From IMG/VR virus record IMGVR_UViG_2671180852_000012: 4,062 nucleotides of DNA. The stretch is one strand, 5' to 3'. The notes beneath the pieces are model-generated. The model worked only from the letters and a program-made list of their open reading frames with translations, searched no databases and was not told the origin of the DNA. Source of the stretch: a virus. Its lineage: Duplodnaviria; Heunggongvirae; Uroviricota; Caudoviricetes. This document shows positions 492-2,535 of the stretch, piece by piece. The stretch's first letter is position 1; each line of letters opens with the position of its first letter. Position numbers and translations under genes: made by a program.

Positions 492-517
492 AACCCGCCG
501 CCGAGCGGGTTTTTTAT
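492..517 (+). terminator. Rho-independent terminator (tR'-like)
   Basis: GC stem CCCGC (494-498) / GCGGG (505-509) with loop CGCCGA, followed by TTTTTTATT at 510-517. Confidence 0.6.
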
Positions 518-545
518 TGCGGAATTAATTACGGACCGTTATTAT
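517..545 (+). promoter_or_regulatory. Candidate promoter directly upstream of tRNA cassette copy 1
   Basis: TTGCGG at 517-522, spacer of 17, TATTAT at 540-545. Predicted start is 2-3 nt before the tRNA 5' end at 555. The -35 is weak and overlaps the terminator T-tract. Confidence 0.3.
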
Positions 546-554
546 TCTGCTCCC

Positions 555-630
555 GGCCCTTTAGCTCAGTGGTGAGAGCGAGCGACTCATAATCGCCAGG
601 TCGCTGGTTCAAATCCAGCAAGGGCCACCA
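555..630 (+). tRNA. ileZ: tRNA-Ile2 (anticodon CAU, lysidine type), copy 1
   Basis: 76 nt. Acceptor stem GGCCCTT/AAGGGCC, anticodon loop CTCATAA, T-arm GGTTCAAATCC, 3' CCA encoded. Closely resembles E. coli ileX rather than a Met tRNA. Confidence 0.9.
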
Positions 631-637
631 TCACAAA

Positions 638-717
638 CCGCCATTAGCTTATCAGGAAGAGCAGACGACACGATAACAGGGTTGTTGGTGCGGGGGCGGG
701 TCCCCGATGGCGGTCCA
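638..717 (+). tRNA. tRNA-like element, possibly a degenerate third tRNA (argN position), copy 1
   Basis: 80 nt. Perfect acceptor-like pairing CCGCCAT/ATGGCGG followed by T and CCA; a D-arm-like GCTT/GAGC helix. I could not fold a canonical anticodon arm, and the T-arm region is a GC hairpin (CGGGG/CCCCG) with a 6-nt loop rather than a TPsiC loop. Spacing between the flanking tRNAs (7 and 13 nt) is typical of a three-tRNA cluster. Confidence 0.3.
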
Positions 718-730
718 TTATCGGTATTCA

Positions 731-807
731 GCGTTGTTAGCTCAGCCGGACAGAGCAATTGCCTTCTAAGCAATCGGTCACTGGTTCGAATCCAGTACAG
801 CGCGCCA
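731..807 (+). tRNA. argO: tRNA-Arg (anticodon UCU, reads AGA), copy 1
   Basis: 77 nt. Acceptor GCGTTGT/ACAGCGC with one G-U pair, anticodon loop CTTCTAA, T-arm ACTGG-TTCGAAT-CCAGT, 3' CCA. Architecture resembles E. coli argU. The symbol is assigned by its position as last gene of the cluster. Confidence 0.88.
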
Positions 808-909
808 TATTCATTCTTCCAGATTCCTTCCGGCAGAGCCTTATACTGAAATATACCTGGCTCAGGATATTGTTGAAAATATTAGACTATCAGTTCGGTT
901 GTTACAGAC

Positions 910-937
910 GCCTTCCGCAGTGAAGGCTTTTTTATTT
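910..937 (+). terminator. Rho-independent terminator between tRNA cassette 1 and the methyltransferase
   Basis: Stem GCCTTC (910-915) / GAAGGC (922-927), loop CGCAGT, followed by TTTTTTATTT at 928-937. Confidence 0.7.
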
Positions 938-954
938 GTGGTAAATGGGCGGCT

Positions 955-962
955 GGGGGGGG
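955..962 (+). repeat. G8 homopolymeric tract
   Basis: Eight consecutive G at 955-962, followed by TTA and four more G. Lies in the intergenic region about 110 bp upstream of the methyltransferase start. Confidence 0.9.
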
Positions 963-1022
963 TTAGGGGCACCCACCAGCCATCTGCTCATGCGTTGGGT
1001 TCACAAGCAAACCTCAGGCCCA

Positions 1023-1041
1023 CTGCTTTGCGCAAAAGCAG
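1023..1041 (+). promoter_or_regulatory. Inverted repeat, operator-like or stem-loop, upstream of the methyltransferase
   Basis: CTGCTTT (1023-1029) and AAAGCAG (1035-1041) around a GCGCA centre; near-perfect palindrome about 35-50 bp upstream of the ATG at 1074. Confidence 0.3.
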
Positions 1042-1073
1042 AATGAGCCTATCAGAGACAGGCTTAATGATCC

Positions 1074-2123
1074 ATGCTTAATACTGTAAAAATATCCAGT
1101 TGTGAGTTAATCAACGCCGACTGCCTGGAATTTATCCGGTCGTTACCCGAAAATTCTGTTGACCTGATAGTCACGGACCCGCCGTACTTTAAAGTGAAGC
1201 CTGAGGGCTGGGATAACCAGTGGAAGGGCGACGATGATTACCTGAAGTGGCTGGACCAGTGTCTGGCGCAGTTCTGGCGGGTGCTGAAACCTGCCGGAAG
1301 TCTTTACCTGTTCTGTGGTCATCGCCTGGCATCTGATATCGAAATCATGATGCGTGAACGCTTCAGTGTGCTGAACCATATTATCTGGGCGAAGCCGTCC
1401 GGACGCTGGAACGGATGCAACAAGGAAAGCCTGCGGGCGTATTTCCCCGCCACAGAGCGCATTCTGTTCGCGGAACATTATCAGGGGCCGTATCGTCCGA
1501 AAGATGCCGGGTATGCGGCGAAGGGCAGTGCACTGAAACAGCATGTGATGGCCCCGCTGATTTCTTACTTTCGTGATGCGCGCGCTGCCCTGGGGATAAC
1601 GGCAAAACAGATTGCAGATGCCACAGGAAAGAAAAACATGGTGTCGCACTGGTTCAGTGCCAGTCAGTGGCAGCTACCGAACGAAAGCGATTATCTGAAA
1701 TTACAGTCGCTGTTTGCCCGGGTGGCAGAAGAGAAACATCAGCGCGGTGAACTGGAAAAGCCCCACCACCAGCTGGTGGATACGTATACGTCACTGAACC
1801 GGCAGTATGTGGAGCTGCAGAGTGAATATAAGCATCTGCGGCGGTATTTTGGTGTGACGGCGCAGGTGCCGTACACGGATGTGTGGACACATAAACCGGT
1901 GCAGTTCTATCCCGGGAAACATCCGTGCGAAAAACCGGCAGAAATGCTGCAGCAGATAATCAGCGCAAGCAGTCGTCCGGGTGACCTGGTTGCAGATTTT
2001 TTTATGGGCTCAGGTTCAACGGTAAAAGCTGCACTGGCGCTCGGGCGTCGTGCGATTGGCGTTGAACTGGAGACCGGACGTTTTGAGCAGACAGTCAGGG
2101 AAGTTCAGGATTTAATCGTTTGA
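1074..2123 (+). CDS. DNA methyltransferase, beta-class, predicted N6-adenine specific; apparently orphan
   Basis: 349-aa ORF. Catalytic motif IV DPPY (nt 1176-1187) is near the N-terminus; HPCEKP (CcrM/YhdJ-like HPxxKP) followed by AdoMet-binding FFMGSGST is near the C-terminus. That order is the beta-class signature. No restriction endonuclease ORF is adjacent within the window. Confidence 0.9.
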   Translation: MLNTVKISSCELINADCLEFIRSLPENSVDLIVTDPPYFKVKPEGWDNQWKGDDDYLKWLDQCLAQFWRVLKPAGSLYLFCGHRLASDIEIMMRERFSVLNHIIWAKPSGRWNGCNKESLRAYFPATERILFAEHYQGPYRPKDAGYAAKGSALKQHVMAPLISYFRDARAALGITAKQIADATGKKNMVSHWFSASQWQLPNESDYLKLQSLFARVAEEKHQRGELEKPHHQLVDTYTSLNRQYVELQSEYKHLRRYFGVTAQVPYTDVWTHKPVQFYPGKHPCEKPAEMLQQIISASSRPGDLVADFFMGSGSTVKAALALGRRAIGVELETGRFEQTVREVQDLIV

Positions 2124-2134
2124 AACGGATGAGA

Positions 2135-2163
2135 TTGCAGAATTAATTACGCACCATTATTAT
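2135..2163 (+). promoter_or_regulatory. Candidate promoter upstream of tRNA cassette copy 2
   Basis: TTGCAG at 2135-2140, spacer of 17, TATTAT at 2158-2163. Same geometry as copy 1. Confidence 0.3.
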
Positions 2164-2172
2164 TCTGCTTCC

Positions 2173-2248
2173 GGCCCTTTAGCTCAGTGGTGAGAGCGAG
2201 CGACTCATAATCGCCAGGTCGCTGGTTCAAATCCAGCAAGGGCCACCA
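2173..2248 (+). tRNA. ileZ: tRNA-Ile2 (anticodon CAU), copy 2
   Basis: Identical to 555-630. Confidence 0.9.
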
Positions 2249-2255
2249 TCACAAA

Positions 2256-2335
2256 CCGCCATTAGCTTATCAGGAAGAGCAGACGACACGATAACAGGGT
2301 TGTTGGTGCGGGGGCGGGTCCCCGATGGCGGTCCA
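2256..2335 (+). tRNA. tRNA-like element, possibly degenerate tRNA, copy 2
   Basis: Identical to 638-717; same caveats. Confidence 0.3.
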
Positions 2336-2348
2336 TTATCGGTATTCA

Positions 2349-2425
2349 GCGTTGTTAGCTCAGCCGGACAGAGCAATTGCCTTCTAAGCAATCGGTCACT
2401 GGTTCGAATCCAGTACAGCGCGCCA
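2349..2425 (+). tRNA. argO: tRNA-Arg (anticodon UCU), copy 2
   Basis: Identical to 731-807. Confidence 0.88.
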
Positions 2426-2535
2426 TATTCATTCTTCCAGATTCCTTCCGGCAGAGCCTTATACTGAAATATACCTGGCTCAGGATATTGTTGAAAATAT
2501 TTTATGTTTGTCAAAAATAAAAGTTCTGTTAAGTA

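Follow-up and report, generated by a model that had tools for sequence, protein, structure and literature searches.

A methyltransferase gene between two tRNA cassettes: a probable recombinant of two common lambdoid late-region layouts

Gene Content of the Late Region

The window, by which the whole analyzed stretch of 4062 bp is meant, belongs to the late operon of a lambdoid Escherichia coli prophage; its features are on the plus strand unless stated otherwise. It opens inside the gene for the late antiterminator Q, whose 3′ part (1-452, stop codon at 450-452; PF03589 Antiterm, E = 1.2e-31) represents the long allele of 284 aa and aligns collinearly with the gene annotated as "antitermination protein" in TK3889, 042, fS10a and JJ1886. 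Q is followed by a tR′-like intrinsic terminator (492-519), a hairpin at 492-511 with a T-run, which was located by a terminator scan and by alignment of relatives. The far end is occupied by a downstream late-region module (2502-4062), described from Pfam, Rfam and the RefSeq annotation of the relatives L005, L006 and L018. This module contains DUF3927 (2925-3056), the sRNA STnc100 (3122-3311), iraM on the minus strand (3337-3672) and the start of a DUF1737/SASA esterase gene (3933-4062).

The central part harbors two copies of a tRNA cassette, R1 and R2, and the material enclosed by them. The preliminary description had placed a terminator and a methyltransferase (MTase) gene between the copies, and both are there: a hairpin resembling an intrinsic terminator (stem 910-927) with its T-run (910-935), found by terminator scan upstream of the MTase gene, and an intact ORF of 349 aa (1074-2123) that encodes a β-class N6-adenine DNA MTase. 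The protein matches PF01555 (N6_N4_Mtase, E = 2.3e-44) over residues 29-340 and scores 152.4 bits, the gathering cut-off being 26.7. The order of its motifs, with VTDPPY towards the N-terminus and FFMGSGST towards the C-terminus, is the one described for the β-class, in which the catalytic DPPY comes first, a TRD lies in the middle and the AdoMet motif FxGxG follows (PMC5778455).

By sequence, the enzyme belongs to the M.EcoGI/M.EcoGII family, a group of non-specific adenine methylases, M.EcoGII being linked to it through a named close relative. It is 95% identical to the enzyme of phage 1720a-02, which has been named as a close relative of M.EcoGII (PMC5778455), and 99% identical to the prophage enzyme of JJ1886, an ST131 strain; M.EcoMV is also an ST131 enzyme (PMC4659465). 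With the prophage-encoded enzymes M.EcoGII and M.EcoGI, which stem from E. coli O104:H4 and are treated by Murray et al. (2018, PMC5778455), it shares the length of 349 aa, the order of DPPY followed by FxGxG, and PF01555. Its predicted activity and lack of specificity follow from this family membership. An assignment to M.EcoGIX was rejected: M.EcoGIX is plasmid-borne, and the M.EcoGI/M.EcoGII family fits. M.EcoGII is reportedly deleterious when constitutively expressed (PMC5778455, PMC4659465). The exact MTase sequence is widespread, being present in 8369 blocks and on at least 1000 contigs.

The Duplicated tRNA Cassette

R1 (516-883) and R2 (2134-2501) are direct repeats of 368 bp that align without gaps at 98.9% identity, as seen both by in-register comparison and by repeat search. 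Such a repeat within 4 kb far exceeds chance. Exactly four positions differ (521 G/A, 534 G/C, 538 G/A and 552 C/T), all of them 5′ of a block of 331 identical bp (553-883 and 2171-2501), and identity ends at 515/516 on the left and at 883/884 on the right. The duplication is thus precisely as the preliminary description had given it.

Each copy encodes the same two tRNAs according to ARAGORN and Rfam, one with anticodon CAU (555-630 in R1, 2173-2248 in R2) and one tRNA-Arg with anticodon UCU (731-807 and 2349-2425). The former is called Met by ARAGORN (Rfam tRNA, 72.5 bits), but its RefSeq homologue is a tRNA-Ile, which makes it an ileZ-like tRNA-Ile2. The latter (Rfam, 68 bits) is argO-like; in relatives its annotation is argO or tRNA-Arg. 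The spacer between them (631-730) is a decayed argN tRNA-Arg: aligned to the intact middle tRNA-Arg of the Stx2a phage EH2246, it retains the 5′ and 3′ ends while the middle has been replaced, and neither ARAGORN nor Rfam calls a tRNA in it. The cassette follows Q/tR′ and precedes the lysis genes on the strand of the late transcript, as an ileZ-argN-argO cluster does. Instead of three intact tRNAs (Ile2-CAU, Arg and Arg-UCU), however, each copy has two, with a remnant in the middle; this two-tRNA variant is itself common among E. coli prophages. A literature search on ileZ/argN/argO returned nothing usable. Weak Rfam matches to Trp_leader (412-518) and to Plastid-ycf2, the latter antisense to the tRNAs, are taken as chance.

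Two Common Layouts

Among 5426 complete E. coli genomes, related late regions occur in two layouts. Type A (Q-tR′-cassette-downstream module) is found in at least 1100 of these genomes, and type B (Q-tR′-orf65-terminator-MTase-cassette-downstream module) in at least 537. Both can reside on a single chromosome, as in AZ 190 and AREA_487. The homology shared by the left arms of the two types stops just 3′ of tR′, whereas the downstream module comes after the cassette in both. Orf65, a gene of 65 codons, precedes the MTase gene in all type B relatives (the L005 copy is WP_000917767.1); it is also annotated in Stx2a phages and in phiP27, and has a weak match to the TrmB HTH (E = 0.0026).

The left part of the window is type A. 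Positions 1-883 show no difference to the IMG/VR loci L142, L152 and L259 and are 98-99% identical to mEp460, TK3889 and 042, against 86-89% for the left arms of type B. The stretch from the tR′ flank through R1 (470-883) is 100% identical in 8 complete E. coli genomes, strain 042 included. The remainder is homologous to type B: positions 884-4062 correspond to L005 3804-6982 at 99.5%, and the 1250 bp of 884-2133 are confined to type B relatives, which show 3-4 differences there. The terminator-like hairpin, like the rest of 884-1073, is kept in these relatives. The downstream module does not tell the parents apart: 6 differences separate it from 042, and 9-11 separate it from type B genomes.

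The two cassettes follow the same division. R1 carries G521, G534, G538 and C552 like type A relatives, and R2, with one mismatch to the type B cassette of fS10a and four to the type A cassette of 042, occupies the usual type B place directly 3′ of the MTase gene. At 521, 534 and 538, the only sites that set the cassette lineages apart, R1 has the type A and R2 the type B alleles. The clustering of all four differences in the first 37 bp is therefore no conversion gradient, since these are lineage SNPs, and cassettes of the two types differ nowhere else. Position 849 hinted at a chimeric R1 with a type A 5′ end and a type B 3′ end; this was dropped, because natural type A prophages have the exact R1 sequence.

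Comparison with related prophages, which the preliminary description had proposed as a check on the ancestral state, does yield relatives with a single cassette and no MTase gene, and they are the closest backbone. When 884-2501 is left out, the window matches L152, a natural type A prophage without the MTase gene, at 2439 of 2444 bases (5 mismatches, no gaps), and E. coli 042 matches the same MTase-less backbone at 99.1%. The methylase-less late regions (mEp460, vB_EcoS-640R1, the prophages of 042 and TK3889, and L152) have the Q allele, tR′, cassette and downstream module of the window and lack its segment of 1618 bp, that is, the orf65 tail, terminator, MTase gene and second cassette. From the other side, window 884-4062 matches in gene content and order the type B late regions of Stx-type and other lambdoid prophages (phiP27, Stx2a phages, the ST131 prophage of JJ1886/EC958) at 93-99.5% DNA identity. 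Late regions of this group comprise Q, pR′/tR′, a DNA methylase, ileZ-argN-argO tRNAs, stx or other morons, nanS-p/SASA and lysis genes. A methylase downstream of Q has been noted for them (PMC10462455), and Stx2 phage records label the tRNAs argN/argO. These regions have one tRNA cluster and an intact orf65 between tR′ and the methylase, whereas in the window an extra cassette replaces most of orf65, argN is a remnant and stx is missing.

The Joint at 883/884

The switch from type A to type B homology falls at 883/884, where the interior of the cassette is fused to the inside of a type B orf65. What remains of orf65 are its last 12 codons and the stop (884-923); the match of the window to L005 begins at L005 3804, within a CDS at 3646-3843. 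The two partners share at most 1 nt at this joint, and there is no N or gap. Because it breaks an otherwise intact ORF of 65 codons, the arrangement in the window is the derived state.

The joint is absent from all 5426 complete E. coli genomes and from 50,697 phage records of INPHARED (megablast with window 790-980), as well as from IMG/VR, JGI metagenomes and GTDB representatives (exact 26-mer and degenerate 24-mer). Exact look-ups of three ORFs, two spanning the joint and one with the 2502 variant, gave no match. Its uniqueness is a statement about these collections. At the other loci that carry the segment, the sequence before 884 is that of orf65, intact, in 113 of 113, and ordinary downstream sequence comes after the cassette in 112 of 113. 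The two natural joints, one of them that of MTase gene to cassette, are each present on at least 120 IMG/VR contigs. Three IMG/VR relatives with apparently several cassettes (L190, L259 and L164) were rejected as parallels, since their "joints" are a single N, i.e., scaffold joins, and are absent from complete genomes.

Origin of the Arrangement

With a probability of roughly three in four, the window represents a rare, probably strain-specific recombinant of the two common lambdoid layouts, and the arrangement is an accidental scar. A type A backbone (Q, tR′, cassette and downstream module) would have received the 1618-bp type B segment with the orf65 tail, the terminator, the MTase gene and the type B cassette. 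The illegitimate joint at 883/884 would mark one side of this event, linking the cassette-to-downstream stretch of one partner to the interior of orf65 of the other. For the other end, plain homology in the cassette or in the downstream module, common to both layouts, would suffice. Since both parents carry the cassette, one copy lies on either side of the MTase gene. On the left (516), the repeat would begin at a natural module boundary, and on the right (883) it would stop at a mere breakpoint.

Any of three routes would lead to the same product. The first is one illegitimate crossover of a type A with a type B genome; the second, a homology-anchored illegitimate insertion or a Campbell-type insertion of an excised circle; and the third, a type B phage that duplicated 1618 bp in tandem and then recombined homologously with a type A phage inside the cassette. 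The earlier proposal that the MTase gene is cargo brought in by homologous recombination stands as far as the origin of the segment in another phage lineage is concerned; as to mechanism, homologous recombination on its own cannot produce the joint at 883/884, which is non-homologous and truncates a conserved ORF.

The event would have doubled the rare-codon tRNA genes, cost the phage orf65 and left the MTase gene between perfect direct repeats of 331 bp. From what is generally known of homologous recombination, RecA or phage recombinases could then delete the gene, restoring the normal type A layout, or amplify it. The suggestion that the MTase gene is deletable thus holds in principle. Such a loss is plausible, though it would be one-way, and nothing indicates that the arrangement is selected or regulated.

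Alternative Explanations

There is a small chance that the genome has type A and type B prophages apart from each other, or a tandem repeat within a type B prophage, and that an assembler threaded these into one short contig, such that Q, the cassette and the MTase gene do not belong to one molecule. The absence of the joint from the searched collections would fit this, as would the frequent presence of both layouts within one genome. A contig within the IMG/VR scaffold L259 starts at exactly base 1 of the window, suggesting that the 4062 bp are an entire repeat-bounded draft contig, and a 117-aa ORF of the region lies on contigs of 2-5 kb in 431 of 487 blocks. However, repeat collapse or a wrong path joins only sequences that share k-mers. 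Reads containing the joint must exist, because its two sides share at most 1 nt, and its sequence is uninterrupted. The most that a path error could account for is the linkage to Q of type A, and the joint of cassette to 884 would be real even then. A simple tandem duplication of the cassette in situ, within one prophage, is very improbable. The repeats are direct and identical over 331 of 368 bp, but only 368 bp of a 1618-bp period are doubled; the 1250 bp between the copies are single-copy and the copies are not head-to-tail. Moreover, they bear the SNPs, including those at the 5′ end, and the native flanks of two phage types, and the left arm is 98-100% identical to type A as compared with 86-89% to type B. 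Tandem duplication in a type B phage is possible only as a first step before exchange with type A.

A selected switch, in which recombination between the repeats lets a population toggle or amplify the MTase gene and so become heterogeneous in methylation, is barely credible; the preliminary description had raised such heterogeneity as a possibility. A perfect direct repeat of 331 bp is an ample substrate for RecA or phage recombinases, and the layout that deletion is predicted to yield is viable and occurs in nature. Yet deletion between direct repeats is irreversible, and the window contains neither a recombinase gene nor significant inverted repeats between or around the copies. A duplication fixed among relatives, with a homogeneous population, had been named as the finding that would speak against a switch. 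No relative has it, in the complete genomes or in the other searched collections, and this argues against a selected function and not for a switch. Furthermore, M.EcoGI, M.EcoGII and M.EcoMV are reportedly unexpressed in lysogens (PMC5778455, PMC4659465), so that host methylation would not track gene copy number during lysogeny. An integrative element or transposon with a duplicated target, such as a tRNA-targeting island, was rejected: the MTase gene is the only credible ORF between the repeats, no integrase or transposase is present there, the repeat is the full 368-bp two-tRNA cassette and not the 3′ end of a tRNA, and the right joint interrupts a gene that it truncates. It is also quite unlikely that the conserved tRNA cassette serves as a portable homology handle, with whose help co-resident lambdoid prophages would capture late cargo (the MTase gene, stx and further morons), release it in small circles and pass it among themselves. 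The window would then be a caught intermediate that gives progeny with and without the MTase gene at appreciable frequency on induction.

Implications for Lambdoid Phages

A recombinant of type A and type B is ordinary phage mosaicism, neither a conserved switch nor a new kind of element. The Hendrix/Juhala model describes lambdoid phages as mosaics that evolve at module boundaries by recombination of both the illegitimate and the homologous kind. The window agrees with this in having a new, homology-free joint beside widely held modules, and the parental layouts do co-reside in one host. It differs in that the product retains the copies of the module from both parents, which creates a direct repeat likely to be unstable. 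The value of the finding is mainly for annotation and assembly; it adds no new mechanism and touches no long-standing question. The window is nevertheless a clear, dated-by-sequence case of module swapping in the late region, in which the direct repeat should vanish quickly. A non-specific adenine methylase, if expressed late, likely shields phage DNA from restriction, and the window shows how a phage that lacks such a gene can gain one.

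Organization of the Late Regulatory Region

The window represents the late regulatory region of a lambdoid Escherichia coli prophage. It opens with the 3′ part of the antiterminator gene Q (1-452; PF03589) and a tR′-like terminator located by a terminator scan (492-519), followed by two copies of a tRNA cassette, R1 (516-883) and R2 (2134-2501), which bracket a hairpin plus T-run (stem at 910-927) and a 349-aa methyltransferase ORF with a PF01555 DNA methylase domain (1074-2123). The downstream module comprises a 117-aa ORF (2536-2889, plus strand), DUF3927 (2925-3056, plus strand), the sRNA STnc100 (RF02076; 3122-3311, plus strand), an iraM homologue that RefSeq names anti-adapter IraM (3337-3672, minus strand) and the start of a DUF1737/SASA esterase gene (3933 onward). 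The Rfam match to STnc100, which sits between DUF3927 and iraM, is full-length and scores 132 bits (gathering score, 47); a strong terminator hairpin (3281-3302) marks its end. The 117-aa ORF is a putative coding sequence with no Pfam or NCBIfam match and is unannotated by RefSeq in all relatives examined; of the 487 index blocks with its exact product, 431 lie on contigs of 2-5 kb. The iraM homologue has no Pfam match at E ≤ 0.01 in a scan of the window, and PF11183 (PmrD) is among the precomputed matches for the neighbor of identical length. Two Q alleles are set apart by an 8-bp indel at 414, near the 3′ end of the gene: without the 8 bp, as in the window and TK3889, Q is longer, at 284 aa, with its stop at 450-452, and with them, as in strain 042 and mEp460, it has 273 aa.

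The Duplicated tRNA Cassette

Compared in register, R1 and R2 align without gaps over 368 bp with four mismatches (521 G/A, 534 G/C, 538 G/A, and 552 C/T, R1 first), leaving 331 bp of perfect identity (553-883 and 2171-2501); a repeat search gave the same pair, and the preliminary description had these figures exactly. Each copy carries one CAU-anticodon tRNA (555-630 and 2173-2248), which is a tRNA-Ile in the RefSeq annotation of homologous loci, i.e., of the lysidine-modified Ile2 type, and one tRNA-Arg(UCU) (731-807 and 2349-2425). The 100-bp spacer between them (631-730 and 2249-2348) yields no call by tRNA finders in either copy. When it is aligned to the intact middle tRNA-Arg (argN) of Stx2a phages, the 5′ and 3′ ends are conserved and the center is replaced; because only these two ends persist, the spacer is a decayed argN.

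Two Single-Cassette Layouts in Related Prophages

Related E. coli prophages show two layouts, each with a single cassette. Type A (Q, tR′, cassette, downstream module) lacks the methyltransferase. Among its representatives are numerous IMG/VR contigs, mEp460, vB_EcoS-640R1, E. coli 042 and TK3889, and a place covering ≥80% of positions 1-883 is present in at least 1100 of the 5426 complete E. coli genomes searched. In type B the order is Q, tR′, a 65-codon ORF, terminator, methyltransferase, cassette and downstream module, as in fS10a, the ST131 strain JJ1886, Stx2a phages and phiP27, stx being inserted further along in the last two. With this layout, ≥80% of the whole window is covered in at least 537 complete genomes, the query's first cassette being "covered" only by the subject's single cassette: these matches span about 3981 bp of the record, with one tRNA pair in the annotation. 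An identical methyltransferase is encoded at ten places examined, all of them type B. The cassette and all sequence downstream are common to both layouts, and only the content between tR′ and the cassette differs.

The window combines the two. Positions 1-883 are type A, with no differences to three IMG/VR loci (L142, L152, L259), whereas identity to type B left arms is only 86-89%; eight complete genomes, strain 042 among them, match 470-883 at 100%. By contrast, 884-4062 is collinear with type B (99.5% to positions 3804-6982 of the relative locus L005), and 884-2133 is present in type B relatives only. Removal of 884-2501 leaves 2444 bp that align throughout with the type A contig L152, which has no methyltransferase gene, with five mismatches and no gaps, and that are 99.1% identical to E. 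coli 042. The cassettes divide likewise: at 521, 534 and 538 type A has G, G, G and type B has A, C, A, while 552 is variable within type B. R1 agrees with type A at these sites and with the 042 cassette throughout; R2 carries the type B alleles and differs at one site from the fS10a cassette. The clustering of differences in the first 37 bp mirrors where the cassette lineages diverge, and beyond the separate lineage origin of the two copies it is uninformative on mechanism.

The 883/884 Joint

The end of R1 meets type B-derived sequence at 883/884, which corresponds to L005 position 3804, inside the 65-codon ORF (CDS 3646-3843); of this ORF the window keeps only the last 12 codons and the stop, at 884-923. 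The two sides have no more than one nucleotide in common. Base 884 is preceded by sequence of this ORF in 113/113 other loci examined that contain that stretch, and the sequence after the cassette is [A/T]TATGTTTG in 112/113 loci, the sole exception adjoining a scaffold N. The right end of the repeat is thus a mere breakpoint with no natural meaning, and the left end (516) is a natural boundary where types A and B converge. The 65-aa ORF between tR′ and the methyltransferase is conserved in type B, shows a weak TrmB-type HTH match (E = 0.0026) and is named "TrmB family transcriptional regulator" by RefSeq in phiP27; it might be a regulator of the methylase, and is destroyed in the window.

None of the 5426 complete E. 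coli genomes has a place covering ≥80% of 790-980, and the joint was not found in 50,697 phage records. An exact 26-mer and a degenerate 24-mer across it were unmatched in IMG/VR, JGI metagenomes and GTDB species representatives; the two natural joints, tR′-to-cassette and methyltransferase-to-cassette, served as positive controls, each occurring in at least 120 IMG/VR contigs. Joint-spanning ORFs have no record among NCBI, ENA and Logan drafts, a weak result as gene callers seldom predict such ORFs. Three IMG/VR loci resembling multi-cassette relatives were rejected: their joints are single N characters, i.e., scaffold joins (L190:6087, L259:2769 and 6012, L164:10085), which create fake arrangements of two or three tRNA cassettes and two methylase genes that are also absent from complete genomes.

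Origin of the Arrangement

In all type B relatives the ORF cut by the joint is intact, and the window is therefore derived: a type B-derived segment has been added to a type A backbone. This could have arisen by a single illegitimate crossover between genomes of the two types, by illegitimate insertion anchored by homology or Campbell-type insertion of an excised circle, or by tandem duplication of 1618 bp in a type B phage and subsequent homologous exchange inside the cassette with a type A phage. All these routes give the same product, and the downstream module, with 6 differences to 042, 9-11 to type B genomes and best matches of both types, does not discriminate among them. Both parental layouts often reside in one chromosome (e.g., AZ 190, AREA_487), so opportunity for recombination is common. 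A plain tandem duplication in situ, offered in the preliminary description as an alternative, is contradicted by the flanks of R1 and R2 and by their alleles, which belong to different lineages.

An assembly artefact carries some weight. The joint is unique among the collections searched, and the contig that follows the N at L259:2769 starts at exactly window base 1, which suggests that all 4062 bp of the window form one entire draft contig with prophage repeats at its ends. However, repeat collapse cannot yield a joint with an overlap of ≤1 nt; at most, therefore, the linkage to the type A Q could be in error. The type A–type B recombinant is an ordinary product of lambdoid phage mosaicism, all of whose parts are known, and apparently a one-off. 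The earlier view of the methyltransferase as acquired cargo holds, in that the gene is type B-derived and missing from type A relatives.

Methyltransferase and Consequences of the Duplication

The enzyme is a beta-class methyltransferase: DPPY lies towards the N-terminus and FMGSG towards the C-terminus. Its exact protein is extremely common (8369 index blocks, at least 1000 contigs), so the gene is intact and ordinary. It equals M.EcoGII in length (349 aa) and is 95% identical to the enzyme of phage 1720a-02, itself very similar to M.EcoGII (Murray et al., PMC5778455). Identity to the JJ1886 prophage enzyme is 99%; this we infer to be the M.EcoMV homologue of Forde et al., whose identity to M.EcoGI is likewise 99% (PMC4659465). 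M.EcoGII methylates adenine in any context; M.EcoGII and M.EcoGI are unexpressed in the lysogen, constitutive expression is deleterious, and the M.EcoGII authors proposed that the genes are switched on upon prophage induction (PMC5778455). The position downstream of Q and tR′ would be compatible with late, Q-dependent expression.

The rearrangement leaves two copies of the cassette, hence of both tRNA genes, removes the 65-codon ORF and retains 150 bp upstream of the methyltransferase start. Perfect direct repeats of 331 bp, 1.25 kb apart, would be expected to recombine via RecA or, in lytic growth, via the phage's own recombinase. The outcome would be a deletion product that cannot be told from a natural type A prophage, or amplification by unequal exchange. 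The gene may thus be deletable or amplifiable, as first proposed, but a selected recombination switch is contradicted, deletion between direct repeats being one-way and the joint absent from the collections searched. Given that enzymes of this family are silent in lysogens, loss of the gene would alter the protection of progeny phage DNA, not host methylation.
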